Part shown: piece after piece, positions 1-16,731 of the stretch
Layout: every line of letters starts with the position of its first letter
Position numbering within the stretch: the stretch's first letter is position 1
Assembly: GCA_030429765.1 (NCBI GenBank)
Contig: JAUIER010000003.1
Location: forward strand, 80,402-144,401
DNA: 64,000 nucleotides
Source: a bacterium
GTDB taxonomy: Bacteria; Omnitrophota; Gorgyraeia; Zapsychrales; Zapsychraceae
Direction of reading: 5' to 3'
Made by a program: the position numbers and the translations under genes
Notes under the pieces: generated by a model
Database searches by the model: none
What the model was told of the DNA's origin: nothing
Seen by the model: the letters and a program-made list of their open reading frames with translations, nothing else

Positions 1-474
1 CTGATCCGTCAGGTATCCGAAGCGGCCCAGGGACTGAATGCCGAAGTTTTTGTCACCACGTCGAGACGGACGCCACCGGCCATTGATCAATATCTCTTCC
101 GAAAGGTCAAGAAGGATCCAAGGTTTCCGTTGCTGATTCTGCCGAACCGTGAAGATGTACCCGAGGCCGTCGGCGGCATATTAGGACTGTGTGATATCCT
201 TATCGTGTCGGGCGACAGCATTTCGATGGTCTCGGAAGCGGCGAGTTCGGGAAAGAAGACTATCGTGTTTTTACCTAAGTTCCGTGATCCGTCCAGCCGA
301 AAATCATCCAAGCATTTCAAATTTGTAGAAGGACTGAACAAGCAAGGTTTTATCTTGTCCTCACGGACCAAGGACATCGGACAGGCCATCTTTGATATTG
401 CCAAGCAAAAGATCCACACACGTCCGCTCGATGAAAGTCCGCCCATTCTTGAATCCTTAAGAAAACTGATTTAA
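1..474 (+). CDS. 3' part of a gene entering from upstream of the window; GT-B-fold C-terminal region, resembling ELM1/DUF1022-type (alternatively LpxB/WaaA-like) glycosyltransferase-fold proteins
   Basis: Frame 1 is open from nt 1 to the stop at 472-474. Translation is ...LIRQVSEAAQGLNAEVFVTT...ILIVSGDSISMVSEAASSGKKTIVFLPKF... The ORF track shows only the internal-Met version (130..474). Confidence 0.35.
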   Translation: MIRQVSEAAQGLNAEVFVTTSRRTPPAIDQYLFRKVKKDPRFPLLILPNREDVPEAVGGILGLCDILIVSGDSISMVSEAASSGKKTIVFLPKFRDPSSRKSSKHFKFVEGLNKQGFILSSRTKDIGQAIFDIAKQKIHTRPLDESPPILESLRKLI

Positions 475-489
475 TCAGGAGAGAAGTGC

Positions 490-2583
490 ATGCGCGTTCT
501 ACAGATTTTACCCGAGCTCAATGTCGGGGGTGTAGAAACCGGAACCGTGGATTTTGCCGCCTACCTGGTTAACCACGGACACAAATCAGTGGTGATCTCT
601 AACGGCGGATCGATGGTTGAACGCCTGGAGGCGGAAGGATCCCGGCACTATCAGCTGCCAGTTCATCGCAAATCTTTTTTTACGGTCAGAAAAATGATCC
701 GGGCGGTCCGTGAGATTATCCGTCAGGAAAAGATTCAGATCGTACATGCCCGTTCGCGTATTCCGGCCTGGATCGCGTATTTTGCCTGCCGCAGCACGCG
801 AGCTTCCTTTATCACGACATGTCATGGATTTTATAGCAAGCCGATCTACAGTCAGGTGATGGGATGGCCCAAGCTGATCATTGTCCCGAGTGAGGTGATT
901 GCCCGGCATATGATCGAGACGTATAAAGTGTCGGCGGATCGTATTCGATGCATTCCGCGCAGTGTTGATCTCGAACGTTTCAAGGCGCCGCGTCGCCCGG
1001 AACGAAAGGACGGCAGCTGCACGATTGCGATTGTGGGGAGGATCACGGCCTTAAAAGGCCACACGTATTTTCTGCAGGCCATGGCCAAGGTTGTGCGGCA
1101 TATTCCTTATGCAAAGATATGGATTATCGGGGATGCGCCGAAAAAGAAATTGGCGTATCGAGAAGAATTGGAAACGCTGGTGAAACGATTGGGGTTGAGC
1201 CAGAATGTCGAGTTTTTGGGAAATCAACAGGATGTGCCGGGTTGTTTGAAGAAGGTTGATGTCCTGTGTTTCTCATCAACAGAGCCGGAATCATTCGGAC
1301 GCGCGATTGTCGAGGCGCAGGCGATGCGTGTTCCCGTTGTGGCCACGAGTGTGGGAGGCGTGGTGGATATTATTGAAGACGGACGAACCGGTTTTTTGGT
1401 GTTGCCCAAGGACCCGGACGCCATGGCGGACCGTGTGCTGAAGCTGGTGAACGATAAGGCGTTGGTCAAAAAGATGACCTCGGCGGCGCTCAAGAAGGTT
1501 CGGGAAAAGTATACCGTTGAACAGATGTCGGAGAGCACCCTGGCCGTCTACAAGGAGCTGCGGCGTTCATTTAATATACTCGTCATCAAGATCAGTTCGA
1601 TAGGTGATGTTGTCCTGGTGACGGCCTCCTTGAAGGCGCTCCGTGCAAAATTTCCTAAGTCGCCCATCAGTGTGTTTGTCGGACGGGAGTCCCGACGGAT
1701 ACTGGCCCAATGCCCGTATGTCGATGAAATAATTCCGTTCGATCACAAAGGCAAGCAAAAAGGATATCTGGAGCTGTGGCGGATGGGAAAGAAACTGCGC
1801 CGCATGCATTTCGACAAGGTTGTCGATTTTCAGAACAATCGAAAAAGTCATTTGCTGAGTTTTCTGACCATGGCCCCAGAAGCCTATGGATTTGACAATA
1901 AGAAATGGTCCCGGCTGCTGACCAATCCATTGAAGGATTATCGCAACGATATCCCGGCCGTGGAACATCAGTTTCAAATACTCAAGCGGTTGGGAATTGA
2001 ATATGATGACGATGTCCGGCTTGAACTGTGGCCGACAAAGACAGACGATGAGCATGTGCAGAAATTATTGGACCAGGAGTGGCTGGGCAACGCCAAGCAA
2101 ATCGTGGGGATAAATGTGTCGGCTTCCGAAAAATGGCCGAGTAAAAACTGGCCGGTTGAACACATTGTTGAGCTGTGTGACCGATTGGGGGCAGAGAATA
2201 TCAGAGTGGTGCTAACAGGTATGAAAAAGGATCGCGAAGTGGCCAAGGCGGTAAACACCAAGGCCAAGTCACGCCCGGCGAATCTCGCCGGACAGACGGA
2301 TATGATGCAGCTCGCGGCCCTGGTCCGTCGCTGTAATGTCTTTGTCACGCCGGATTCCGCGCCGCTGCATGTCTCGGCGGCCGTGGAGACACCTGTTGTG
2401 GCCTTATTCGGTCCGACTGATTCTGCACGTCATGTGCCGCCGGCCGATCAAATCAAGGTGTTGGAGACGCGTCCGGAATGCGCGCCATGCTACAGCGGGC
2501 AATGCCGTGTGAAAACGCATGTCTGCATGAAAGAAATCACCGTCGACGATGTCTATCGTGAGATTAAAAAATTAATGGCCTGA
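490..2583 (+). CDS. Bidomain glycosyltransferase: N-terminal GT4 (RfaG-like) domain fused to a C-terminal GT9 (ADP-heptose:LPS heptosyltransferase-like) domain
   Basis: 697-aa ORF. GT4 hallmark ...ESFGRAIVEAQAMRVPVVATSVGGVVDIIEDGRTGFLV (EX7E) lies in the first half. The GT9 N-terminal signature NILVIKISSIGDVVLVTASLKAL begins directly after the GT4 C-terminus. An SD-like AAGGAG (1552-1557) sits at the domain junction. Confidence 0.8.
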   Translation: MRVLQILPELNVGGVETGTVDFAAYLVNHGHKSVVISNGGSMVERLEAEGSRHYQLPVHRKSFFTVRKMIRAVREIIRQEKIQIVHARSRIPAWIAYFACRSTRASFITTCHGFYSKPIYSQVMGWPKLIIVPSEVIARHMIETYKVSADRIRCIPRSVDLERFKAPRRPERKDGSCTIAIVGRITALKGHTYFLQAMAKVVRHIPYAKIWIIGDAPKKKLAYREELETLVKRLGLSQNVEFLGNQQDVPGCLKKVDVLCFSSTEPESFGRAIVEAQAMRVPVVATSVGGVVDIIEDGRTGFLVLPKDPDAMADRVLKLVNDKALVKKMTSAALKKVREKYTVEQMSESTLAVYKELRRSFNILVIKISSIGDVVLVTASLKALRAKFPKSPISVFVGRESRRILAQCPYVDEIIPFDHKGKQKGYLELWRMGKKLRRMHFDKVVDFQNNRKSHLLSFLTMAPEAYGFDNKKWSRLLTNPLKDYRNDIPAVEHQFQILKRLGIEYDDDVRLELWPTKTDDEHVQKLLDQEWLGNAKQIVGINVSASEKWPSKNWPVEHIVELCDRLGAENIRVVLTGMKKDREVAKAVNTKAKSRPANLAGQTDMMQLAALVRRCNVFVTPDSAPLHVSAAVETPVVALFGPTDSARHVPPADQIKVLETRPECAPCYSGQCRVKTHVCMKEITVDDVYREIKKLMA

Positions 2584-2584
2584 T

Positions 2585-3679
2585 ATGAAGATATTGATAC
2601 TATCCACACACGTCAATACCGGCGGTATCACCAGTTATTTACTGACATTGTGCCAGGGCCTAATCAGGCAAGGGCATCAAATCTGGCTTGTGTCGAGCGG
2701 CGGCGATTGCGAGTCACGGTTTACGTCGATGGGGGTGACGATGATCCAGATGGATATTCGGACCAAGTCGGACTTGAGTCCAAAGATTTACGCGGCGGCT
2801 CCTAGGATTCGTCAATTGGTTGTCGATAACGGTATCGACATTCTCCACGCGCAGACGCGTGTCACCCAGGTGCTGGCGCGGCTGGTTCAGCGCTCAACGC
2901 AATGTGTGTATGTAGCCACCTGTCATGGATATTTCAAACGCCGCCTGAATCGACGCATCGCACCGTGCTGGGGTGATATGACCATCGCGATCAGCACCGC
3001 CGTGTATGAACATTTACTGGATGATTTTGAACTGGTCAGCGAACGTGTGTGCCTGATCGAGAATGGTATTGACACCGAGTATTATGCGCCGCTCTGTGAT
3101 GAACGCAAATCTCAGCAACGTCAGGCACTGGGACTTGATAACAGGAGGGTCGTCGGGACAATCGCGCGCCTCTCGGATGTCAAAGGGATCGATATTTTGA
3201 TCGAAGCCATGCCGCAGATTATGGATGCCGTTCCGGATGTGCATTGTGCCATCTTTGGACAAGGCAAAGAAGACGCCCCGCTTAAGGCGCTATGCCGTTC
3301 CCGGGGATTAGAGGACCGGATCACATTTTTTGACACGGTCAATGATACGGTGCAGTCTATGGGCGCGATCGATGTGTTTGTCATGCCCTCCCGACAGGAA
3401 GGATTAGGGTTGTCGGTGATGGAGGCACAATCCTGCGGTTGTCCGGTGGTGGCGACCAATGTCGGAGGTCTGCCGAGCCTTGTGATCGACGGACAAACAG
3501 GATTGCTTATTGAACCCGAGAGTCCGGAGGCGGTGGCGAATGCCGTGATCAAGCTGTTTAAAGATGACGATCTGTCCCAACGTCTCAGCGATAACGGACG
3601 GGATTTTATCCAAGCCAAATTTTCGGCCCGAGGGATGGTCGATAAAACGGCCGACTTGTATGCGAGGCTTTGCGCGTAA
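2585..3679 (+). CDS. GT4 family glycosyltransferase (RfaG/WaaG-like)
   Basis: MKILILSTHVNTGGITSYLL... and ...EGLGLSVMEAQSCGCPVVATNVGGLPSLVIDGQTGLL (EX7E motif); 1-nt spacing from the upstream gene. Confidence 0.85.
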   Translation: MKILILSTHVNTGGITSYLLTLCQGLIRQGHQIWLVSSGGDCESRFTSMGVTMIQMDIRTKSDLSPKIYAAAPRIRQLVVDNGIDILHAQTRVTQVLARLVQRSTQCVYVATCHGYFKRRLNRRIAPCWGDMTIAISTAVYEHLLDDFELVSERVCLIENGIDTEYYAPLCDERKSQQRQALGLDNRRVVGTIARLSDVKGIDILIEAMPQIMDAVPDVHCAIFGQGKEDAPLKALCRSRGLEDRITFFDTVNDTVQSMGAIDVFVMPSRQEGLGLSVMEAQSCGCPVVATNVGGLPSLVIDGQTGLLIEPESPEAVANAVIKLFKDDDLSQRLSDNGRDFIQAKFSARGMVDKTADLYARLCA

Positions 3680-3680
3680 C

Positions 3681-4703
3681 ATGAAAAATCTACTGGTGGT
3701 GAATGTTAACTGGTTAGGGGATGTGATTTTTTCCTCGCCTGTCTTTCGAGCGTTAAGAAAGTCATACCCTGACGCGCGAATCAGTTGTCTGGCCGTGCCG
3801 CGTGTGCGTGAGATCCTCGAATCCATTCAGGAGATTGATGACATCATCATCTATGACGAGGATGGACGTGACCGCAATCTGCTGTCCAAGTTTAGAATGG
3901 TGGGACGGCTGCGTCGGGAAAATTTTGATGCTGTCTTTTTACTATCGAAATCACGTTCACGCGCGTCGATGATGAAGTTGGCCGGCATTCCGGTCCGCGT
4001 GGGGTATGAAAATAAGAATCGAGGTCGCCTGTTGTCACATATTGCCGCGGGAGATGTGAACAGCATGCATCGAAGTGATTATTATCTAGGCGTTATTGAA
4101 GCGTTTGGTGTGGCTGTGGAAGATCGGAGCACCATCCTTGAAGCACGGGAGGAAGATTGTCACACAGTTCAACAAATGCTTAGCGATCAAGGACGTGATC
4201 CGTCGAAAAAATTGATTGCTCTCAACCCGGGGGGGAATTGGGATCTGAAGCGATGGCCGGCCGAAAATTTTGCGCGGCTCGCGGAACGTTTGAGTACCGA
4301 CAAGGAATTACAATTGGTCTTTACCGGCGCGGATAAAGATCGACCGCTGGTGGAGGATATTTTTCGGACAGCTAGTTTCGAAAGTAAGCCGATCAAACTA
4401 ACCGGACAGATGACTTTAAAGCAGCTGACGGCCTTGATGACATGTCTGGATGTCTTTGTCACCGCAGACTCAGGGCCGCTTCACATGGCCACAAGCGTTG
4501 GGTGCCCGACCGTGAGCGTCTTTGGGCCGACACGTCCGGAAATCACTGGTCCTCGCGGCACGGGACAAAATGTCACACTTCAGAAGGATGTCGGGTGCAA
4601 TCGCCGGGCCTGTTATCACTTGGAATGCCGAAACAATATCTGCATGCAGGCCGTAACCGTTGAGAACGTATATGAAGCCATTAAATCCATCCAGGATTCG
4701 TAG
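3681..4703 (+). CDS. GT9 family glycosyltransferase (heptosyltransferase-like)
   Basis: MKNLLVVNVNWLGDVIFSSPVFRALRKSYPDARISCLAVP... is the typical GT9 N-terminus. The ORF-track version (3564..) starts inside the previous gene. ATG at 3681 is the first start after the upstream stop (3677-3679). Confidence 0.8.
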   Translation: MKNLLVVNVNWLGDVIFSSPVFRALRKSYPDARISCLAVPRVREILESIQEIDDIIIYDEDGRDRNLLSKFRMVGRLRRENFDAVFLLSKSRSRASMMKLAGIPVRVGYENKNRGRLLSHIAAGDVNSMHRSDYYLGVIEAFGVAVEDRSTILEAREEDCHTVQQMLSDQGRDPSKKLIALNPGGNWDLKRWPAENFARLAERLSTDKELQLVFTGADKDRPLVEDIFRTASFESKPIKLTGQMTLKQLTALMTCLDVFVTADSGPLHMATSVGCPTVSVFGPTRPEITGPRGTGQNVTLQKDVGCNRRACYHLECRNNICMQAVTVENVYEAIKSIQDS

Positions 4704-5664
4704 AATTCTGATTATTTCATTGTCGAATATCGGTGATGTGATCTTGACGCTGCCGGTTGCTGATATATTACGCCGTGATTTCCCGGACGCGAAAATCTCG
4801 ATTGTCGTCGGGCCCAAGGTGAAGTCGTTGTTTAAGAATACGCAGGCCTTTGAACATGTGATCCCCTACAATAAACATCAATCTGTCGGCGAGAAGTTTA
4901 AGTGGATCATGAAACTGCGCAAATACCGATTTGATCTGGTGGTGGACTTGAGAAACTCGGCGATTCCATTTTTACTGTCACCCAAATATCGAACGCCTGT
5001 GGATATTTCATCCAAAAAATCCATACATATGCGGCTCAAGCATCTGAAGCGATTACGAACAGTTCATCCATTTACCGATGATCGTGCGCAGCCCCAAAGT
5101 CTTTACGTCTCAGACGACGACCGGCAGTTTGTGGATGAGACGTTGGAAAAATATGTGGGAGCGTCCAAACCTTTCGTGGTGATGTCGCCTGGATCAGCCG
5201 ATCAGGCCAAGCGCTGGTCCAAGAAGGGATTCGCCGAGGTTGCTGAATTCCTGACGCAGGAACACGGATTAAAAACCGTCTTCGTCGGTGATCGGGAGGA
5301 TCGGCAGGTTGTGCAGGCGATACGCAAACTTATGGACAGCGAACCGGTGGATTTATGCGGCCGCACGACGCTGATTCAAACAGCCGAGATTGTCCGTCGC
5401 AGCCGGATGGCTTTGGTCAACGATAGCGCTGTGCAACATTTGGCCAGTTATCTGGATGTGCCGGTGTTGGCCATTTTTGGCTATACCGATCCGCTCAAGT
5501 ATGGACCGTGGGGAACCCGCGGCGGATATCTGCAACCCCATGGCGTGGCCGGCAAAACTGAAGGGACGACCGAGGAGCGCGTGGCCTTAATCGAGAGTGT
5601 TCGGCCGGCGGATGTGATCCGCTGCATACAAATGCGCGAATCGGGTGTCAGGTTTTTGTTATGA
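4672..5664 (+). CDS. GT9 family glycosyltransferase (heptosyltransferase-like)
   Basis: MKPLNPSRIRRILIISLSNIGDVILTLPVADILRRDFPDAKISIVVGP... An alternative start at 4660 is possible. The gene overlaps the upstream GT9 gene end. Confidence 0.75.
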   Translation: MKPLNPSRIRRILIISLSNIGDVILTLPVADILRRDFPDAKISIVVGPKVKSLFKNTQAFEHVIPYNKHQSVGEKFKWIMKLRKYRFDLVVDLRNSAIPFLLSPKYRTPVDISSKKSIHMRLKHLKRLRTVHPFTDDRAQPQSLYVSDDDRQFVDETLEKYVGASKPFVVMSPGSADQAKRWSKKGFAEVAEFLTQEHGLKTVFVGDREDRQVVQAIRKLMDSEPVDLCGRTTLIQTAEIVRRSRMALVNDSAVQHLASYLDVPVLAIFGYTDPLKYGPWGTRGGYLQPHGVAGKTEGTTEERVALIESVRPADVIRCIQMRESGVRFLL

Positions 5665-6707
5665 CGCAGACGTTCAAGAATATTTTAATCATCCGGACGG
5701 ATCGTATCGGAGATGTGGTCCTGACAACACCATCGATCAAGGCGGTGCGAAAGGCCTATCCCGACGCTCGACTGTGTGTTCTGCTGGCACCTTTAACCTA
5801 TGATCTGCTAAACGGGATTGGTTTTGTCGACCGGCTATTCGTCGATGATCGACGGGGAGAGCACGCGGGAAATCTAGGTTTTTTCAAATTGGTCCGAAAA
5901 ATTCGACGGGAACGATTTGACCTGGTGATTAATTATCACACCAAGAAGCGTACAAATTTGATGGCGTTTCTGGCGGGCGTTCCGTACCGGTTGGGTTATC
6001 GCAACAACAAATGGGGCTTTTTATTGAATCATCCCGTCGAAGATTATCGTCATGAAGGTTTAAAGCACGAGGCCGCCTACTGTTTAGACCTGCTTAATGA
6101 GATCGGCATCAGCGATGCTGAATTAACTCCCGAAATCGCCTTGCTCGACGAATCCGTGGCCTGGGTCGATGATTTTCTGGGGCTTAACCAGATTGACGCG
6201 GGGGACAAGCTGATCGTGATTCATCCGTCGGCCAGCGATCCGGCCAAACAGTGGCCCGCCGAAAATTTTGTTGAACTGATCAACACCCTGGGAACGCGCA
6301 ACGCCGAACTCAAATTTGCCGTGATTGGAACGGCGGCCAATAGATCGCTGGCTGCTTCGATCGTCAAAGGCACCCGGCCGAAGGTGCTCGACACCACGGG
6401 TCTGCTGTCACTTAGCCAGATGGTCGCGCTCCTCAAGCGGGCCGATCTGCTGATATCCAATGATTCAGGGCCGGTTCATGTGGCCGCCGCCCTTCAAACA
6501 CCGGTGATATCCATCTTTACCCGGAATCAACCCGGGATCAATCCCACACGTTGGCAACCGCTTGGAGAGAGGTCGGCGTACGTAAGTGTTGATGCCGATC
6601 ACTCCAAATCCTTCAAAAAAGCCCAGAATTACGACCCAAAATCCATGCAACCGATTGCCGTTCAGACGGTTTTGCAAGCAGTTGACGCCCTTTGTAAACT
6701 ATGCTAG
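5661..6707 (+). CDS. GT9 family glycosyltransferase (heptosyltransferase-like)
   Basis: MTQTFKNILIIRTDRIGDVVLTTPSIKAVRKAYPDARLCVLLAP...; 4-nt overlap with the upstream gene. Confidence 0.8.
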   Translation: MTQTFKNILIIRTDRIGDVVLTTPSIKAVRKAYPDARLCVLLAPLTYDLLNGIGFVDRLFVDDRRGEHAGNLGFFKLVRKIRRERFDLVINYHTKKRTNLMAFLAGVPYRLGYRNNKWGFLLNHPVEDYRHEGLKHEAAYCLDLLNEIGISDAELTPEIALLDESVAWVDDFLGLNQIDAGDKLIVIHPSASDPAKQWPAENFVELINTLGTRNAELKFAVIGTAANRSLAASIVKGTRPKVLDTTGLLSLSQMVALLKRADLLISNDSGPVHVAAALQTPVISIFTRNQPGINPTRWQPLGERSAYVSVDADHSKSFKKAQNYDPKSMQPIAVQTVLQAVDALCKLC

Positions 6708-6769: not shown

Positions 6770-7798
6770 ATGAGCACCTTCAGGACAATTCTATCCAAGT
6801 TTAATCAGCAATCAATTCTCGTCGTTGGAGATTTAATCCTCGATCAGTACCTCCAGGGGTCGGTCAGCCGGATTTCGCCTGAGGCGCCGGTGCCGGTGGT
6901 TCTGCAGAAGAAGGCCTTCAACACTCCCGGCGGGGCGGCCAATGTGGCCAATAACCTGGCCGGACTCAAGGCCAAGGTCTCTATGCTCGGGATCGTGGGG
7001 GACGATGCCGAGGGGAAGTTGCTGGTCCAGTCCCTGAAGAAGAAAAAAATCCGTGTCCAGGCGATCTATACTGATTCCAATCGTCCAACCATCACCAAGA
7101 CGCGCGTGTTGGCTCAGAATCAGCAAATCGTGCGAATCGACAAAGAAGATATCGACAAGCCGATCCACAAAAACATCACCAAGAAATTGTTTGATTATCT
7201 GACTCGAAACATCGAGAAATTTGATGCGGTGATCCTGTCTGACTACGGCAAGGGACTGCTAACACCGGAATTGTCGCAGCATGCGGTCTCACTCGCGCTT
7301 AAGCATAAAAAAATTGTGACGGTTGATCCCAAGGTTGAGCATTTTGGTTACTATCGTCATGCGACGGCAATTACGCCGAACCTGGCCGAGACAGAGAATG
7401 CCATTCGCAGCATTAAAGTCACATCACCTCAACTATCCGCCAAGCTGGGCGTCGATTCGGATAAACTCAAAACTGATGAACAGATTGACCTGGCCGGCAA
7501 AGAGCTATTGAAATGTCTGGATCTTGATTCACTATTGGTTACATTGAGCGAACGCGGGATGCGGTTATTTGAACGCGGTAAAAAGCCGGTCTCCATCAAG
7601 ACCAAGGCCAAGGCCGTCTATGACGTGACCGGGGCGGGCGATGCGGTTATTTCAGTTTTTACATTGGCCATGGCCGCCGGGGCCACAAAACATCAGGCCG
7701 CCGATTTGTCGAATTTCGGCGCGGGTATCGTTGTTGGCAAGTTAGGGGCCGTCGCCCTCGAGAAGAAAGAACTGGCAGAGGCCGTTAAGGGACATTAG
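6770..7798 (+). CDS. hldA: D-glycero-beta-D-manno-heptose-7-phosphate kinase (RfaE domain I, pfkB-family sugar kinase; kinase domain only)
   Basis: ...ILVVGDLILDQYLQGSVSRISPEAPVPVVL...NTPGGAANVANNLAGL... plus the C-terminal GAGDAV motif. The 342-aa length matches the kinase half of HldE only. Confidence 0.8.
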   Translation: MSTFRTILSKFNQQSILVVGDLILDQYLQGSVSRISPEAPVPVVLQKKAFNTPGGAANVANNLAGLKAKVSMLGIVGDDAEGKLLVQSLKKKKIRVQAIYTDSNRPTITKTRVLAQNQQIVRIDKEDIDKPIHKNITKKLFDYLTRNIEKFDAVILSDYGKGLLTPELSQHAVSLALKHKKIVTVDPKVEHFGYYRHATAITPNLAETENAIRSIKVTSPQLSAKLGVDSDKLKTDEQIDLAGKELLKCLDLDSLLVTLSERGMRLFERGKKPVSIKTKAKAVYDVTGAGDAVISVFTLAMAAGATKHQAADLSNFGAGIVVGKLGAVALEKKELAEAVKGH

Positions 7799-8530
7799 AT
7801 GCGCACGATTGCGGTAATACCGGCACGGTATCATTCCACCCGTTTTGAAGCCAAGGTTTTGGCGATCATCGACGGGAAACCGATGATTCAGCATGTGTAC
7901 GAACGGACGCGGCAATCCCAGCGCGTCGATGATGTGATCATTGCGTGTGATCATCCGGACGTTCAGCAAGCGGCCGAAGCGTTCGGCGCGCGAGCGGTGA
8001 TGACCGATCCCAACCATGCGTCGGGATCCGATCGAATTGCTGAAGCCGTGAAAAACATTTCGTGTGACGTGGTCGTCAATGTTCAGGGAGACGAACCGCT
8101 GATCCAGCCGCAAGTGATCGATGCATTGGTCGACGCGATGTCCGGCAAGGACAATCACGTGATGGCCACGGTGGTGACCGCGATCCGTGACGATGCCGAG
8201 ATTGATGATCCGAATGTGGTCAAAGCTGTTATCAATGCAAAAGGCGAGGCGCTCTATTTTTCGCGATCCCGTATTCCGTATCAACGGAATGCCGTGGGCC
8301 AGATATACTACAAACATTTAGGCATTTATGCCTACACCAGGGAATTTCTTTTAACGTACACACAAATGCCCAAGTCTAAACTGGAGCTCACCGAATCGCT
8401 CGAGCAGCTGCGGGTCTTGGATGCCGGATACCGAATCAAAACCATCGAGACGGACCAATCATCAATCGGCGTTGATTGTCCCGAAGATTTAGTCAAAGTT
8501 GAAGCCGCCATCAGGAAGCAGGAGTCATGA
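7799..8530 (+). CDS. kdsB: 3-deoxy-manno-octulosonate cytidylyltransferase (CMP-Kdo synthetase)
   Basis: MRTIAVIPARYHSTRFEAKVLAIIDGKPMIQHVYERT...; start adjoins the hldA stop. Confidence 0.9.
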   Translation: MRTIAVIPARYHSTRFEAKVLAIIDGKPMIQHVYERTRQSQRVDDVIIACDHPDVQQAAEAFGARAVMTDPNHASGSDRIAEAVKNISCDVVVNVQGDEPLIQPQVIDALVDAMSGKDNHVMATVVTAIRDDAEIDDPNVVKAVINAKGEALYFSRSRIPYQRNAVGQIYYKHLGIYAYTREFLLTYTQMPKSKLELTESLEQLRVLDAGYRIKTIETDQSSIGVDCPEDLVKVEAAIRKQES

Positions 8531-9348
8531 CCAAACAGATCCAAATCCATAACGTCAAAATCGGACGTCGCAATCCATTTGTTTTAATCGCCGGACCATG
8601 TGTTATCGAGGGCCGGCAAATCACCATGAAGATCGCCGGTCGTCTGAAGAAGATCACCAGCAAACTGGGAATTCCGCTGGTCTTCAAGGCCAGTTATGAC
8701 AAAGCCAATCGTACATCGATCAATTCGCATCGCGGTCCCGGGATCAGTGAGGGGTTGGACATCCTAGCCGAGATCAAGGCTAAGTATGATGTCCCGATCG
8801 TGAGTGATGTGCATAACATCGGGGAGATCGATCAGGCCGCGAAGGTGCTGGATATCCTGCAGATTCCGGCCTTTCTGTGCCGGCAGACCGATCTGCTTGT
8901 ATGCGCGGGCAGCACCGGACGTGTCGTGAATATCAAAAAAGGACAGTTTGTGGCCCCGGAAAATATGAACCAGGCCGTGTCCAAAGTCGAGAGCACCGGC
9001 AACAAAAAGATAATGCTCACCGAACGCGGTGTGAGTTTCGGGTACAATGCGCTGGTCACCGATTTTCGGTCGATACCGATCATGCAGGAATTCGGCTATC
9101 CGGTGATCCTGGACGCGTCCCACAGTGTTCAGCAGCCCGGCGGATTGGGCAATGCGTCCGGCGGACGAAGTGAGTTCATTCCGATGTTTGCCCGATGCGG
9201 GGTCGCCGCGGGATGTGACGGGATATTTATGGAAGTGCACTCAGATCCATCCCAAGCCTTGTCGGATGGTCCCAATATGCTTCCACTTAACAAACTCGAA
9301 AAATTACTGGTCCAGCTCAAGGCGCTGGATCAAATCGTGAAAAAGTAA
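8527..9348 (+). CDS. kdsA: 2-dehydro-3-deoxyphosphooctonate aldolase (Kdo8P synthase)
   Basis: ...NPFVLIAGPCVIEGRQ...LVFKASYDKANRTS...; 4-nt overlap with kdsB. Confidence 0.9.
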   Translation: MTKQIQIHNVKIGRRNPFVLIAGPCVIEGRQITMKIAGRLKKITSKLGIPLVFKASYDKANRTSINSHRGPGISEGLDILAEIKAKYDVPIVSDVHNIGEIDQAAKVLDILQIPAFLCRQTDLLVCAGSTGRVVNIKKGQFVAPENMNQAVSKVESTGNKKIMLTERGVSFGYNALVTDFRSIPIMQEFGYPVILDASHSVQQPGGLGNASGGRSEFIPMFARCGVAAGCDGIFMEVHSDPSQALSDGPNMLPLNKLEKLLVQLKALDQIVKK

Positions 9349-9352
9349 ACAG

Positions 9353-10309
9353 ATGCTGGATAAAGCCAAAGAAGTGATCAAGATCGAAGCGCAGGCCCTC
9401 ACGCAATTCGCCAGGCGTCTGGATGATAACTTCATTCAGGCGGTGGACCTGATTGCCCGGTGCCGCGGGCGTGTGATCATTTCTGGAATGGGCAAAGCCG
9501 GTCTGGTGGGGAATAAAATTGCGGCCACGTTATCCTCAACGGGAACGCCGAGTATCTCGATGCATAGCGCCGACGCGGTGCATGGTGATTTGGGGCAGGT
9601 CACCCGGAAAGACATTCTGATACTGATCTCCAATAGCGGTGAAACGGACGAGACCAAGCGTTTGATCCCGCTCATCAAAAAGATTGGGTCCAAGATCATC
9701 GCCATGACGGGAAATCCCCAATCCAACCTGGCCAAGCACAGCGACATGGTCCTCAATGTCTCGGTCAAGAAAGAGGGATGTCCGCTTGGATTGGCGCCGA
9801 TGGCCTCGACCACGACGATGCTGGCCTGCGGTGATGCACTGGCCGCCTGCTTAATCGAACGCAAAGGCTTTCAGCAAAAAGATTTCGCCTTTTATCATCC
9901 GGCCGGTTCGCTGGGACGCAAGCTTCATATGCGGGTGGAGGATATTATGCGAAAGGACGATGATTTTCCCCGGGTGACAGCCGACACAACCGTCAAGAAT
10001 GTCCTGTTGGCGATTACCCGCAGCCGATGCGGATCGGCCTGTGTGCTTGATAGCCGCGGACGGTTTATCGGGATTTTTACCGATGGAGATCTGCGCCGTC
10101 ACATCGAAAGCGATCCGGATTTGTTGAATCGCGAGGTCAAGAAAGTCATGACCCGCAAGCCGATTACGATCAATAAAGATAAACTGGCCGTTGAGGCTCT
10201 CGAATTGCTCAACAGGCGTCAGATCGATGAAATTCCGGTGGTCAACGGCCAAAATCAGCTGGTCGGATTGCTGGACATTCAGGATCTGCTTAAGGTGGGT
10301 TTACTATGA
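9353..10309 (+). CDS. kdsD: Arabinose-5-phosphate isomerase (SIS domain plus tandem CBS domains)
   Basis: ...RVIISGMGKAGLVGNKIAATLSSTGTPS...ILISNSGETDE... followed by a CBS pair. Confidence 0.88.
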   Translation: MLDKAKEVIKIEAQALTQFARRLDDNFIQAVDLIARCRGRVIISGMGKAGLVGNKIAATLSSTGTPSISMHSADAVHGDLGQVTRKDILILISNSGETDETKRLIPLIKKIGSKIIAMTGNPQSNLAKHSDMVLNVSVKKEGCPLGLAPMASTTTMLACGDALAACLIERKGFQQKDFAFYHPAGSLGRKLHMRVEDIMRKDDDFPRVTADTTVKNVLLAITRSRCGSACVLDSRGRFIGIFTDGDLRRHIESDPDLLNREVKKVMTRKPITINKDKLAVEALELLNRRQIDEIPVVNGQNQLVGLLDIQDLLKVGLL

Positions 10310-10833
10310 ATAAATCGTTGAAAGATAAGGCCAAAAAGGTTAAACTGCTAGTTCTCGATGTGGATGGTATCCTTTCGGACGGGAAAATTATCGTCTCCGA
10401 CCAGGGGCATGAGATCAAGCATTTCAATGTCTACGACGGTTTCGGAATTGTCCTGTTCCAGCGACAGGGATTTAAAGTGGCCATCATTTCCGCAAGAGAA
10501 TCGGAAGCGGTGAAAGCTCGCGCCAAGGATCTGAAAATCAGCAGGGTCTATCTCAACGCACGTAACAAACTCAAGGTCTACCAGCGACTTGTCAAAAGCC
10601 TAAAGCTCAGCGACGAGGAAGTATGTTTTATGGGGGACGATTTGCCGGATCTCTCTGTCTTTCAGACAGTGGGCCTGGCGGTGACCGTCCCAAATGCCCG
10701 AGAGGAAATCCGGACGATTGCTCATCATGTTACCAAGACGGCCGGTGGCCAGGGAGCGGTTCGCGAGGTGGTAGAGATGATCCTCAAACACAAAGGGATG
10801 TGGGATTCCGTGGTGAAGGAGTATTCCGTATGA
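10306..10833 (+). CDS. kdsC: Kdo-8-phosphate phosphatase (HAD superfamily)
   Basis: ...VKLLVLDVDGILSDGKI...VYDGFGIVLFQRQGFKVAIISARESEAV...FMGDDLPDL... Confidence 0.88.
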   Translation: MNKSLKDKAKKVKLLVLDVDGILSDGKIIVSDQGHEIKHFNVYDGFGIVLFQRQGFKVAIISARESEAVKARAKDLKISRVYLNARNKLKVYQRLVKSLKLSDEEVCFMGDDLPDLSVFQTVGLAVTVPNAREEIRTIAHHVTKTAGGQGAVREVVEMILKHKGMWDSVVKEYSV

Positions 10834-11657
10834 ATGCACATAGATTTCTGATCGGTTTGATCGCGGTTTTGTTGTCGGCCGGACCAGTTCTGGCGGAGGA
10901 CAATGTGGAACAGCAGTTCCAGGGATTCAATCTTCAGGGGTATACCGACGAGGGCGACAAGGCCTGGGATGTCGAGGGTGATACGGCGGACATCAACGGT
11001 ACAGAAATTACCCTGACCAATGTTGTGGCCAACAGCTATGGCGACCGTCAGATGAACGTGACGGCCGAGATGGGCAAGGTTGATCAGGTCAATGGCCACA
11101 TGCAGCTCGAGAAAGATGTTGTGATCACCAGCGACGACGGGTCCAAACTGATGTCGGACTTTATTGAATGGGACAAAGAGAGCGATACCGTAAGTTCCAG
11201 CGAGGAAGTCTACATCAGGAGCGACGCGTTCAGCGCCACGGGAACAGGCATGAAGGCCCGGCCCGGACTCAAAAGCGCGCAGATCGATAAAGATGTGACC
11301 GTGCGAGTGGAAACCGAAGAGGATACGGAACGGACCAAACAACTGACGGTGAGTAGTGACGGACCGATGATCCTGGACCAGTTGCTGCTCAAGGCCCGGT
11401 TCGAGGTCAACGTTATCGCCGAACAGGACGGTCAAATCCTCAAAGCGGATGTGATCGAGATCTACTTCAAAGAAGGCATGAAGGAAGTTGAGGAAATGAT
11501 CTGTGTGGGCAATGTCGAGATCATTCAGGGCGAGAACAAGACGTATGCCGACAAGGCGACCTATGATGCCGAGGAGCAAAAGCTGGTATTGTCAGGCCGC
11601 CCCAAACTGATTCTGGAAACCGGAGGAGATAGTGGCATTACATCTCTTGGAAACTAA
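10830..11657 (+). CDS. lptA: Periplasmic LPS-transport OstA-like beta-jellyroll protein (LptA-like; unusually long, possibly covering the LptC role)
   Basis: Signal peptide MNAHRFLIGLIAVLLSAGPVLA. C-terminal ...NKTYADKATYDAEEQKLVLSGRPKL is LptA-like. ATG at 10830 overlaps the kdsC stop (ATGA). It lies in the canonical kdsD-kdsC-lptC-lptA-lptB position, but only one gene is present. Confidence 0.65.
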   Translation: MNAHRFLIGLIAVLLSAGPVLAEDNVEQQFQGFNLQGYTDEGDKAWDVEGDTADINGTEITLTNVVANSYGDRQMNVTAEMGKVDQVNGHMQLEKDVVITSDDGSKLMSDFIEWDKESDTVSSSEEVYIRSDAFSATGTGMKARPGLKSAQIDKDVTVRVETEEDTERTKQLTVSSDGPMILDQLLLKARFEVNVIAEQDGQILKADVIEIYFKEGMKEVEEMICVGNVEIIQGENKTYADKATYDAEEQKLVLSGRPKLILETGGDSGITSLGN

Positions 11658-12360
11658 GGGATTAGTCAAGTCCTATGGCGGTCGACGGGTCGTCGACGGC
11701 TTGAGTATATCGGTGGGGCGATCTGAGATCGTGGGTCTACTTGGACCCAACGGGGCCGGTAAAACAACCACCTTTTACATGGCGGTGGGCATTGTTCAGC
11801 CCAGTGAAGGTCAGATTCTATTTGATAACGAAGATATCACCAAGAAATCGATTCATCAGCGTTGCCGCCTGGGAATGGGATATCTAGCCCAGGAAGCGTC
11901 GATCTTCAGAAAAATGACCGTTGCGGAAAATATCATGGCGATTCTGGAAACGCTGAATATCAGCCCGCGCGAACGCAAAAAACGGCTGGAATCGTTATTG
12001 GAAGAATTGAACATCGCGCATCTGGCTAAAAGCAAGGCGTATACGTTGTCCGGTGGAGAACGGCGTCGCTTGGAGATCACACGGGCGTTGGTGACGAATC
12101 CATCCTTTTTGTTGTTGGACGAGCCGTTTTCCGGTATTGATCCGATTGTTGTGTCGGAAGCCCAAGAAATTATCAAGGAACTGCGAAATCGGGGGCTTGG
12201 TATTTTGCTAACGGATCACAATGTTCGCGAAACTTTATCGATTACGGACCGTGCGTATCTCGTCGCCGACGGCAACATTCTCAAAGCCGGAACGGCCGAT
12301 GATCTGATCAACGATCCTGAAGCCCGGAAGATCTATCTAGGTGAAAAATTTAAAATGTAA
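11632..12360 (+). CDS. lptB: LPS export ABC transporter ATP-binding protein
   Basis: ...LLGPNGAGKTTTFYM... (Walker A), LSGGERRRLEITRAL (ABC signature), LLLDEPFSGIDP (Walker B). Confidence 0.88.
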   Translation: MALHLLETKGLVKSYGGRRVVDGLSISVGRSEIVGLLGPNGAGKTTTFYMAVGIVQPSEGQILFDNEDITKKSIHQRCRLGMGYLAQEASIFRKMTVAENIMAILETLNISPRERKKRLESLLEELNIAHLAKSKAYTLSGGERRRLEITRALVTNPSFLLLDEPFSGIDPIVVSEAQEIIKELRNRGLGILLTDHNVRETLSITDRAYLVADGNILKAGTADDLINDPEARKIYLGEKFKM

Positions 12361-13990: not shown

Positions 13991-15127
13991 ATGGACACCA
14001 TTTTGTTAACTCCGGGACCCACCATGATTCTTGATGAAGCCAGAGAGGCGCTGGGACGGCCGATCATTCATCACCGTACACCGCAGTTTCAGGCCAATAT
14101 CAAGGAAGTCATTGAAGGGTTACAGTACGTCTACCAAACCAAAAATGATATCTACCTGATGACATGCTCGGGAACAGGCGCGATGGAAGCGACGGTCTGT
14201 AATTTGCTGTCGCCGGGTGATGAGGCTATCACGGTGAATGGAGGTAAGTTCGGTGAGCGTTGGGCGGAACTCTGTGAAGCGTATGACGCCAAACCAACCG
14301 TCATTGACGTGGAATGGGGACAGGCTGTCGATCCGGAAAAAATCCGCGAGCATCTTAAGGCGAATCCAAAGATCAAGGCTGTATTTGTCACGTTAAACGA
14401 AACATCTACCGGCGTAGTGTCTGACATTGAGGCGATTGGTAAGGTGGTTGCCGAGACAGACGCGGTGATGATCGTGGACGCCGTCAGTGGCTTGGGTGTG
14501 GTTGATTGTCAAACCGATAAATGGAAGGCCGATATGGTTGTCTCGGGTTCGCATAAAGGATTTATGCTGCCGCCGGGACTGGCCTTTATTTCGGCGTCCG
14601 AAAAAGCCATCAAGTTGATTAACAGTTCGACCAATCGTCGATTTTATTTTGATCTTCGTAAGTCTAAAAAGGCCTTTGAAGCGACGGATACTCCGTTCAC
14701 ACCGGCGATTGGAATCGTTATCGGAATGGTGGAGAGTCTCCGCTGGATGCGTGAGAAAGGAATTGAAAATCTTTTCGCCCACTATGAGCGGCTGGCGAAG
14801 GGATGTCGCGCGGCGGCCAAGGCCTTGGACCTTAAATTGTTGGCCGATGAGTCATGCATTTCGAATGTCCTGACAGCGATCCATATTCCCGAAGGCGTCG
14901 ACGGCGGAAAATTGGTCAAGACCATGCGAGACACGCATGGTGTCACCTGCGCCGGCGGTCAAGGGCACCTAAAGGGTAAGATTATCCGTATCGCCCATAT
15001 GGGGATCGTAAATGAAGATCACATCATTCGATGTCTGGAAACGTTCGAGCTGGTATTGAAAGAAATGGGATATTCGTTTACAGACCAGGCCGGTGTCAAT
15101 GCGGCCAAAGCTGTCTTTAATTCATAA
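13991..15127 (+). CDS. Class V aminotransferase, probably phosphoserine aminotransferase of the SerC/AGXT type (adjacent to serA)
   Basis: ...LLTPGPT...MTCSGTGAMEA...DAVSGLG...SGSHKGFMLPPGLAF... (PLP-lysine SxHK region); serA is the next gene. Confidence 0.75.
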   Translation: MDTILLTPGPTMILDEAREALGRPIIHHRTPQFQANIKEVIEGLQYVYQTKNDIYLMTCSGTGAMEATVCNLLSPGDEAITVNGGKFGERWAELCEAYDAKPTVIDVEWGQAVDPEKIREHLKANPKIKAVFVTLNETSTGVVSDIEAIGKVVAETDAVMIVDAVSGLGVVDCQTDKWKADMVVSGSHKGFMLPPGLAFISASEKAIKLINSSTNRRFYFDLRKSKKAFEATDTPFTPAIGIVIGMVESLRWMREKGIENLFAHYERLAKGCRAAAKALDLKLLADESCISNVLTAIHIPEGVDGGKLVKTMRDTHGVTCAGGQGHLKGKIIRIAHMGIVNEDHIIRCLETFELVLKEMGYSFTDQAGVNAAKAVFNS

Positions 15128-15147
15128 ACAACGATGAGGATGGACCG

Positions 15148-16731
15148 ATGAAAATTCTAATTAGTGATAAACTCGCCGAAGAAGGCGTTAATATACTGAA
15201 GGCCGAGAAGGATTTCGAAGTTGATGTCAAGACAGGGATGAGTCCTGACGAATTGAAATCTGTGATTGGAGACTACCACGCGATTATCATCCGCTCGGCA
15301 ACCACATTGACAGGTGATGTCATCGAGGCGGCGGACAATCTCAAGGTGATCGGAAGGGCAGGGGTCGGGCTGGACAACGTGGATCTCAAAGCAGCCACCA
15401 AAAAAGGGGTGGTGGCCATGAACACGCCGGCCGGTAATACGACGTCGACGGCCGAACACACGATGAGTATGATCCTGGCTGTTTCAAGAAATATTCCCCA
15501 GGCGTATTCAGCGATGAAGGCCGGACGCTGGGATCGATCCAAGTTCGGCGGCGTTGAACTTTACGGCAAGACACTTGGTGTTATCGGACTAGGCCGGATT
15601 GGCGCTACCGTGGCCAAGTTCGCCAAGGCCTTCGGAATGGACATCATCGCGTATGATCCATACCTGTCCAACGAGGCCATGGCTCAGAAAAATATCGAGT
15701 CGGTCACACTCGAGGATCTGTACAAACGATCCGACTACATCACGATTCATATTCCCAAGACAAACGAAACCAAGAATTTAATCTCCACCAAGGAGATCGA
15801 GATGATGAAGCCGTCCGTGCTGCTGATCAATTGCGCGCGCGGCGGTATTATCGATGAAGCGGCATTGGCCGAAGCCCTAGAAAACAAGAAGATCAAGGGA
15901 TGCGCGCTGGATGTGTACGATTCTGAACCGCTTGATCCATCATCACCGTTACTCAAATACGATAATTGTGTGGTCACGCCGCATTTGGGCGCTTCGACAT
16001 CGGAAGCGCAGATCAATGTGGCCATCGAGATTGCCGAGACAGTTCGGGATGCCTTGTTGGGACGAGGTATCGTGAATGCCGCCAACTTCCCATCGGTCGA
16101 CGCGGAAAGTTACAAGACGCTTGAGCCGTATGTCAATCTTGGACAAAGCATGGGGCAATTTGCCGGCCAACTGATTCATGGTCGTATCAGTGAGGTCAAG
16201 ATCACTTACAGCGGAATCCTGACGCAGCATAAAACAGCGCCGGTGACATTGTCGATCATCAACGGTCTGCTGACGCCGATTCTGGGTGAAGGTGTGAACT
16301 ACATCAATGCGCTGGATATCGCCAAGGATCGGGCGATCGATGTTCAAGATGTCAAGTCAACCAAGGTGGATGAATTTGTCAACTGCATCAAACTGGATGT
16401 TAAGACCGACAAAGATCCGTTTTCAATGTTGGGAACACTTTCAAGCAATTTGCAGCCGCGTATTGTCAAGATCGGCAGCATTTATATGGAAGCCGTTCCC
16501 AAAGGTCACATGTTGTTTATTCAGAACAACGACAAGCCCGGATTGGTTGGCGCGGTGGGTACGATCCTGGCGCAGGACAATATCAACATCGCCGGTATTA
16601 CGTTGGGCCGGGAAGCTGAACGCAAGACGGCGATCAGTGTGGTCAACGTAGATAATGAGGTGACTGATAAGACGATTCAGAAGCTCAAGGATACGGCGGA
16701 CGTTTTGTATGTCAAATCACTAAAGGTGTAA
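15148..16731 (+). CDS. serA: D-3-phosphoglycerate dehydrogenase (with C-terminal ACT domain)
   Basis: ...LKVIGRAGVGLDNVDL...LGVIGLGRIGATVA... The 527-aa length fits the long form with ASB/ACT domains. Confidence 0.88.
   Translation: MKILISDKLAEEGVNILKAEKDFEVDVKTGMSPDELKSVIGDYHAIIIRSATTLTGDVIEAADNLKVIGRAGVGLDNVDLKAATKKGVVAMNTPAGNTTSTAEHTMSMILAVSRNIPQAYSAMKAGRWDRSKFGGVELYGKTLGVIGLGRIGATVAKFAKAFGMDIIAYDPYLSNEAMAQKNIESVTLEDLYKRSDYITIHIPKTNETKNLISTKEIEMMKPSVLLINCARGGIIDEAALAEALENKKIKGCALDVYDSEPLDPSSPLLKYDNCVVTPHLGASTSEAQINVAIEIAETVRDALLGRGIVNAANFPSVDAESYKTLEPYVNLGQSMGQFAGQLIHGRISEVKITYSGILTQHKTAPVTLSIINGLLTPILGEGVNYINALDIAKDRAIDVQDVKSTKVDEFVNCIKLDVKTDKDPFSMLGTLSSNLQPRIVKIGSIYMEAVPKGHMLFIQNNDKPGLVGAVGTILAQDNINIAGITLGREAERKTAISVVNVDNEVTDKTIQKLKDTADVLYVKSLKV

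Follow-up and report, generated by a model that had tools for sequence, protein, structure and literature searches.

We analyzed a window of 64,000 nucleotides (nt) from a bacterium of the phylum Omnitrophota (family Zapsychraceae; contig JAUIER010000003.1, positions 80,402 to 144,401, forward strand), in which the open reading frame (ORF) at positions 490–2583 encodes two complete glycosyltransferases in a single frame of 697 amino acids (aa). The N-terminal half is a retaining enzyme of glycosyltransferase family 4 (GT4), and the C-terminal half is a heptosyltransferase-type enzyme of family 9 (GT9). In the Pfam search, the GT4 N-domain (PF13439) matched residues 12–163 with 99.2 bits against a gathering threshold of 28.5, the GT4 C-domain (PF00534) matched residues 167–335 with 131.4 bits against 26.4, and the GT9 domain (PF01075) matched residues 430–675 with 142.1 bits against 22. 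TIGR02195, the full-length heptosyltransferase II model of NCBIfam, was aligned to residues 362–696. The envelopes of the hidden Markov models leave GT4 complete to residue 357 and GT9 starting at residue 362, which indicates that the two domains abut without a linker. We consider it likely that this ORF encodes a bifunctional glycosyltransferase of the lipopolysaccharide (LPS) inner core, which would have arisen by the in-frame fusion of adjacent, translationally coupled genes in the Omnitrophota lineage and would have been kept since. The coordinates of the fused gene and its neighbors are summarized in Table 1.

The AlphaFold2 model of the fused protein, calculated with 122 sequences, had a mean predicted local distance difference test score (pLDDT) of 92.2 and a predicted template modeling (TM) score of 0.85, with no segment below a pLDDT of 50. 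At the junction, the last GT4 helix (residues 343–359) is predicted to pass through a loop of 3 residues into the first GT9 strand (residues 363–367) with a pLDDT of 93–95. The original prediction had described a covalent GT4-GT9 fusion without a linker, and both the envelopes and the model bear this out. The Foldseek comparison gave TMt values of 0.88 for 3TOV and 0.81 for 1PSW, which corresponds to a GT-B fold like that of the solved GT9 enzymes. No chain spanning both halves was found in the PDB, where the best query-normalized TM score was 0.47.

Both halves have conserved catalytic residues. In regards to the GT4 half, E275 of the EX7E motif (E267-x7-E275) was invariant among the 122 sequences and E267 was at least 90% conserved; Y354, at the start of the junction, was also invariant in the alignment. 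In regards to the GT9 half, an alignment with Escherichia coli WaaC, WaaF, WaaQ, and WaaU indicated that the equivalents of WaaC D13, K192, and D261, which we take to be catalytic from published work on WaaC, were kept in 21 of 21 fused GT9 halves. The same three residues were kept in the three separate GT9 enzymes encoded downstream (GT9b, GT9c, and GT9d; 21 sequences each), with the sole exception of a Lys to Arg replacement in 4 of 21 GT9d sequences. Residues 664–679 of the fused GT9 half (positions 2479–2526) form an invariant Cys-x2-Cys-x4-Cys-x4-His-x-Cys cluster, which may be a zinc site; the AlphaFold confidence falls to 73–82 at this cluster. A similar pattern of four Cys residues (CNRRACYHLECRNNIC) was observed in GT9b near positions 4600–4650, and the cluster was absent from GT9c, GT9d, and the four E. 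coli enzymes in the alignment.

We scanned one genome per GTDB species and found a relative of the fusion in 366 species representatives. The best 80 of these 366 were used for the conservation counts given here for loci; the titles of most name Omnitrophota, and those of the others read, for example, "uncultured Planctomycetales". All 80 matched the fusion from residue 1 to residues 688–697, and each of these loci, which come from different metagenome-assembled genomes (MAGs) and studies, ran through the junction in a single high-scoring segment pair without a stop codon. The length of the junction was identical in 79 loci and shorter by 1 residue in the remaining one. A protein 100% identical to the ORF product is present in NCBI. 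Furthermore, more than 120 full-length proteins of 685–720 aa with 57–73% identity were found in NCBI, JGI, ENA, and Logan, all of which carry both the GT4 and the GT9 Pfam domains; the named ones belong to Candidatus Omnitrophica/Omnitrophota MAGs. A further 40 clusters at 50% identity consisted of orthologous GT4-GT9 fusions with identities down to about 35% and domain envelopes 2–7 residues apart. Judged from this sequence comparison, the gene is an ancient and well-conserved fusion across the uncultured phylum Omnitrophota, and the original prediction, which had suggested looking for the same fusion in relatives, is borne out on this point.

The genes of this operon lie 1 base apart or overlap, so that a single insertion or deletion could merge two frames. 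An error of sequencing or assembly near positions 1555–1575, which the original prediction had named as the way in which the fusion might prove to be two ordinary adjacent genes, is nevertheless excluded by the sequences, since the same open frame was read through this region in all 80 independent loci, with the same length in 79, and in the full-length proteins; we assign it practically no probability. Another explanation is that one gene gives two products, with the hexamer AAGGAG at positions 1552–1557 driving internal initiation so that the GT9 half is also made alone. The hexamer was confirmed at this position. AAGGAG serves as a true Shine-Dalgarno (SD) sequence elsewhere in this genome (10816–10821, 5 nt before the ATG at 10827), and residue 361 is Met or Leu (ATG or TTG) in many orthologues, in the pattern S-M-N-I-L-V-I-K, 12 nt past the position of the hexamer; this residue could be the remnant of a former start codon. 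However, the window ORF has Phe (TTT) at residue 361 and none of the in-frame start codons ATG, GTG, and TTG among codons 355–366, and the next in-frame GTG lies beyond the catalytic GD motif. The GT9 half would therefore be made only as part of the fusion. The hexamer was also missing from 73 of 81 orthologues, and we regard internal initiation as very improbable. The AAGGAG had been proposed as the relic of an SD sequence, but it reads as codons K355-E356 in the last GT4 helix, of which E356 is nearly invariant at the protein level. The stretch of 36 nt that precedes the GT9 domain contained 6-base SD matches in 8 of 81 orthologues and 5-base matches in 28 of 81, against a background of 3.2% and 17%, respectively, in other 36-nt windows of the same genes. 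This enrichment is real but modest, and the conserved Glu356 together with the preceding purine-rich Lys, Glu, or Gln codons explain it. The hexamer may still be vestigial, but it shows no sign of conservation or function as a ribosome-binding site. In the window as a whole, AAGGAG is under-represented: 25.7 copies would be expected, and 15 were counted on the two strands.

The remaining explanations concern the function of the two halves. Tandem glycosyltransferase fusions in which one module is inactive are known in polysaccharide synthesis, and by this precedent one half might be catalytically dead and do no more than scaffold the other or anchor it to the membrane. We consider this unlikely, as the residues for catalysis and donor binding show little or no variation throughout the phylum in either half, and both halves score as full-length members of their families. 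The cluster might also build another glycoconjugate such as a Pel-like exopolysaccharide, and some database entries of this protein are named PelF. The PelF model NF038011 gave 104.6 bits against a cut-off of 100, which is barely above it, and the match was limited to residues 148–354. No other pel gene was found nearby and no pelA-G context was found; the neighbors in the window were LPS genes, as they were in nearly all of the 80 loci, where the gene stands between waaA-lpxK-lpxL and hldE-kdsBADC-lptCAB. A Pel-like product is accordingly highly unlikely. Public records call the protein "LPS heptosyltransferase II" or "GT4 family glycosyltransferase PelF", names that derive from the TIGR02195 and NF038011 models; each name covers only half of the fusion, and the PelF name is contradicted by the gene context, which settles the question of annotation. 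A further explanation, to which we give a modest but real chance, is that the fused GT9 half, and perhaps the other GT9 enzymes, are not heptosyltransferases and use another donor or an acceptor outside LPS. Assignment to heptosyltransferase I, II, or III (HepI, HepII, or HepIII) fails outside Proteobacteria, two of the four paralogues pass the HepII model and two pass none, and the Cys4 cluster shared by the fused half and GT9b is missing from the E. coli enzymes. Against this, the operon encodes a heptose-7-phosphate kinase in most of the loci that extend far enough downstream, and the ADP-heptose-binding and catalytic residues are conserved.

We examined the family models to assign the enzymatic steps. 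The HepII model TIGR02195 was passed by the fused GT9 half (169.4 bits) and by GT9b (170.8 bits) against a cut-off of 134.6, which indicates that this model does not discriminate here. The fused half remained below the cut-off of the enteric RfaF model NF008162 (119.2 against 569) and of the HepI models TIGR02193 (99.8 against 185.3) and NF008204 (49.5 against 437). None of the four GT9 enzymes passed the HepI models or the enteric RfaF, RfaC, and RfaQ models, and GT9c and GT9d were below every NCBIfam equivalog cut-off; the PF01075 scores of the three separate GT9 genes were 104–134 bits. In a neighbor-joining tree with the four E. coli GT9 enzymes, calculated without support values, each Omnitrophota GT9 group was monophyletic, and the four groups are therefore old paralogues. 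GT9c was placed nearer to WaaQ and WaaU, and the other three groups nearer to WaaF and WaaC. The GT9 phylogeny that had been proposed for defining HepI, HepII, and HepIII clades thus gave no usable assignment.

If the ORF encodes a bifunctional inner-core enzyme, the protein would be a peripheral enzyme on the cytoplasmic side of the inner membrane, with two active sites acting on lipid A that carries 3-deoxy-d-manno-oct-2-ulosonic acid (Kdo). The GT9 half would transfer l,d-heptose from ADP-heptose, the GT4 half would add a hexose from a nucleotide sugar, and the two additions would probably be consecutive or neighboring steps. In GT-B enzymes, the C-terminal helix packs back on the N-terminal, acceptor-binding domain of the same enzyme. 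With this packing and a join of 3 residues, the two acceptor-binding domains would therefore lie side by side. A join without a linker between two GT-B enzymes implies that the two active sites would be held in a fixed geometry; it would set the stoichiometry at 1:1 and allow the lipid-anchored intermediate to be handed over a short path. Fusions of this kind suggest a functional or physical partnership, here between two enzymes that would act on the same intermediate.

Several points weigh against the assignment as a bifunctional inner-core enzyme. The consecutive order of the steps is an analogy, the rigid arrangement of the domains is a prediction, and the donors and the acceptor are predicted only from the enzyme families and the genes of the operon. 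No assignment of the fused GT9 half to HepI, HepII, or HepIII was obtained, and the tree gave no one-to-one match to the E. coli enzymes. The similarity of the GT4 half to E. coli WaaG was low, at 23% identity over 189 residues (E = 2e-9). Moreover, the ADP-heptose pathway is represented in the window by the kinase only.

We compared the fused protein with known systems. E. coli WaaF and WaaC (PDB 1PSW and 2GT1/2H1F) are likewise GT9 enzymes with a GT-B fold, with the catalytic Asp in a GD motif and with Lys192 and Asp261, and their genes, too, stand beside heptose and Kdo genes in an LPS core operon. They are single-domain proteins of 319–348 aa, whereas the Omnitrophota GT9 enzyme is fused to GT4, has about 25% identity to them, and carries the extra Cys4/His cluster near its C-terminus. 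In the search of the PDB, the fused GT9 half matched 1PSW (WaaF) with an E-value of 3e-29 and Veillonella parvula 3TOV with 1e-28. The latter is a single-domain GT9 enzyme whose PDB entry carries a family name only; among the solved structures it ranked first for GT9c and GT9d and second for the fused half. For the GT4 half, the nearest solved relative was the glycosyltransferase 7MI0 from Rickettsia africae (E-value 4e-59 over residues 3–357, TM score 0.83). The two proteins share the N-terminal motif P-x-L-x-x-GGVE-x-GT and the C-terminal motif YKE[LI]; 7MI0 is a standalone protein that ends 6 residues past YKEI, where the Omnitrophota protein runs on into GT9. A full-text literature search for "7MI0", a deposited crystal structure, found no paper, and nothing specific was found in the literature on GT4-GT9 fusions or on the LPS of Omnitrophota.

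The waa cluster of E. coli K-12 has the same inventory of enzymes, with four GT9 (waaC, waaF, waaQ, and waaU) and two GT4 (waaG and waaB) genes, and the claim that four GT9 domains imply an unusual core does not hold. In E. coli all of these genes are separate and are accompanied by GT8 enzymes, kinases, and a ligase, whereas the Omnitrophota operon also contains lipid A, Kdo, and Lpt genes. We found no indication of new chemistry or of a new kind of system; this is an ordinary, if unusually complete, LPS operon. The fusion also provides an architecture that can mark LPS core synthesis throughout the phylum Omnitrophota, which is represented here by MAGs only.

To examine the origin of the fusion, standalone relatives of the halves were searched exhaustively in 1.84 billion cluster representatives. 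Standalone GT4 proteins of 355–363 aa with 40–43% identity aligned to residues 1–357, and standalone GT9 proteins of 335–345 aa aligned from residue 362. The named standalone GT4 proteins came from one Omnitrophota MAG, Candidatus Ratteibacteria, and Bdellovibrionota. Since the genes of the operon are separated by 1-base gaps or overlaps, a fusion by a small insertion or deletion would be easy. We then took the 150 best cluster representatives (50% identity) and sorted them by the domain of the window to which each was closest. Besides the 40 orthologous GT4-GT9 fusions given above, they included 8–10 GT9c-GT9d fusions (one named Omnitrophota), 2 GT4b-GT9b fusions, 1 GT4b-GT9b-GT9c fusion of 1081 aa, and many GT4-GT4 or triple-GT4 proteins. 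The neighbor-fusion proteins of the operon are the metagenomic proteins P0212, P0213, P0223, P0224, P0175, P0208, and P0156. Judging from such proteins, the neighbors in the operon are fused repeatedly and always in operon order. The view that GT4 and GT9 enzymes are normally separate polypeptides therefore applies to model organisms, whereas GT4-GT9, GT9-GT9, and GT4-GT4 fusions are common in metagenomic proteins. An apparent GT4b-GT9b fusion in locus L044 was rejected; the two genes share a frame but a stop codon lies between them.

A non-orthologous GT4-GT9 fusion of 738 aa was found in a Thermodesulfobacteriota MAG (P0367/P0270). It has the same order of GT4 and GT9 in one chain, but its identity is about 29%, its GT9 half is closest to GT9b and GT9d, and its halves are joined by a linker of about 40 residues, whereas the Omnitrophota class has none. 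Here the two families seem to have been fused independently. Together with the other tandem fusions, this protein indicates that the GT4-GT9 architecture is not unique and is found in more than one phylum. A database search with a profile built from 17 very divergent GT4-GT9 fusions returned mostly generic GT4 proteins.

It is possible, although we hold this only tentatively, that the LPS-core glycosyltransferases of Omnitrophota form a physically coupled assembly line and that the fusions of neighbors are snapshots of a complex that is non-covalent in model bacteria. The linker-less GT4-GT9 fusion throughout the phylum and the GT9c-GT9d, GT4b-GT9b, and GT4b-GT9b-GT9c fusions are the evidence for this proposal. 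If it is true, the fused protein would be a natural, rigid two-site scaffold for the passage of the core oligosaccharide between Waa enzymes.

Table 1. Positions in the window of the fused gene, its parts, and the neighboring genes.
Feature	Positions	Strand	Evidence
Fused GT4-GT9 glycosyltransferase, 697 aa	490-2583	+	Pfam and NCBIfam, full-length homologues, AlphaFold
GT4 half, residues 1-358, retaining GT-B enzyme, EX7E E267...E275	490-1563	+	PF13439 and PF00534
GT9 half, residues 359-697, with D373, Lys, D622, and Cys4/His cluster 664-679	1564-2583	+	PF01075, TIGR02195
Domain junction Y354-I363: end of GT4 C-terminal helix, 3 loop residues, first GT9 strand	1549-1578	+	
AAGGAG hexamer, codons K355-E356, not a conserved ribosome-binding site	1552-1557	+	
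ELM1-like GT-B domain, 3' end of an ORF running off the left window edge (158 C-terminal residues)	1-474	+	PF06258; frame open from base 1
GT4b, second GT4 glycosyltransferase, start 1 base past the fusion stop	2585-3679	+	Pfam, synteny
GT9b, probable start ATG 3681, 1 base past the GT4b stop	3681-4703	+	TIGR02195, 170.8 bits against 134.6
GT9c, start TTG 4660 or ATG 4672, overlaps the end of GT9b	4660-5664	+	PF01075, 103.9 bits
GT9d, ATGA start/stop overlap with GT9c	5661-6707	+	PF01075, 134 bits
D-glycero-beta-D-manno-heptose-7-phosphate kinase (HldE domain I alone)	6770-7798	+	TIGR02198, 361.4 bits against 345; syntenic
kdsB, kdsA, kdsD/kpsF, kdsC (CMP-Kdo synthesis)	7799-10833	+	Above the cut-offs of TIGR00466, TIGR01362, TIGR00393, TIGR01670
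LptC/LptA-like protein	10827-11657	+	Pfam LptC and LptD_N
LptB	11632-12360	+	TIGR04406, 356 bits against 240

The fusion lies in the middle of a super-operon for lipid A, Kdo, core, and Lpt functions with the order waaA, lpxK, lpxL-ELM1, [GT4-GT9], GT4, three GT9 genes, hldE-kinase, kdsBADC, lptC/A, and lptB. The ORFs were found where the original prediction had placed them, and its gene order after the fusion (GT4, GT9, GT9, GT9) was confirmed by the domain searches. The start of the second GT9 gene is the exception: the gene is present, but it most likely starts at ATG 3681 and not at 3564. Its cluster of positions 490–6707 also holds as far as it goes, but the cluster is larger and extends downstream to 12360 and, in relatives, upstream beyond the window. 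This upstream context was taken from related loci, and the full LpxL-ELM1 protein was seen in locus L001 only. In that locus, the orthologue of the upstream ORF (8004–9986) encodes 660 aa with a lipid A acyltransferase domain of the LpxL type (PF03279, residues 13–294) and PF06258 (residues 310–657), and lpxK and waaA precede it. The gene upstream of the GT4-GT9 gene is thus itself a fusion, and its ELM1-like end lies directly upstream in nearly all 80 loci. The order ELM1-like, fusion, GT4b, GT9b, GT9c, GT9d, hldE-kinase, kdsB, kdsA, kdsD, kdsC, and lptB was observed in most of the loci that are long enough, and in about one-fifth of the loci the glycosyltransferase block is followed by other genes.

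Within the block, the stop and start codons are arranged as TGAtATG (2581–2587), TAAcATG (3677–3683), an overlap (4660–4703), and ATGA (5661–5664), and no recognizable SD sequence was observed upstream of GT4b and GT9b. These 1-base gaps and overlaps, together with the absent SD sequences, suggest translational coupling along the operon. GT4b shared 26% identity with the fused GT4 half and, over 379 residues, 22% with E. coli WaaG, and GT9c formed a separate orthogroup.

The 276-aa protein encoded at positions 10827–11657 matched LptC at residues 23–160 and LptA/LptD_N at residues 189–261, its start overlaps the end of kdsC, and no separate lptA precedes lptB. The protein could be LptC fused to LptA, or an LptC with an extension. 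In locus L023, an AbiEi/AbiEii toxin-antitoxin pair (14458–16120) is inserted between GT9b and GT9c. The extra genes inside the cluster in L023, L036, L066, and L072 (RNase II, flavodoxin, the AbiE toxin-antitoxin, and others) were rejected as unrelated; outside L023 the insertions sit at different gene boundaries. The rest of the window (12.4–57 kb) contained housekeeping genes only and no further genes of the heptose pathway. Nearly every family-matching ORF of at least 150 aa across the window lies on the plus strand.

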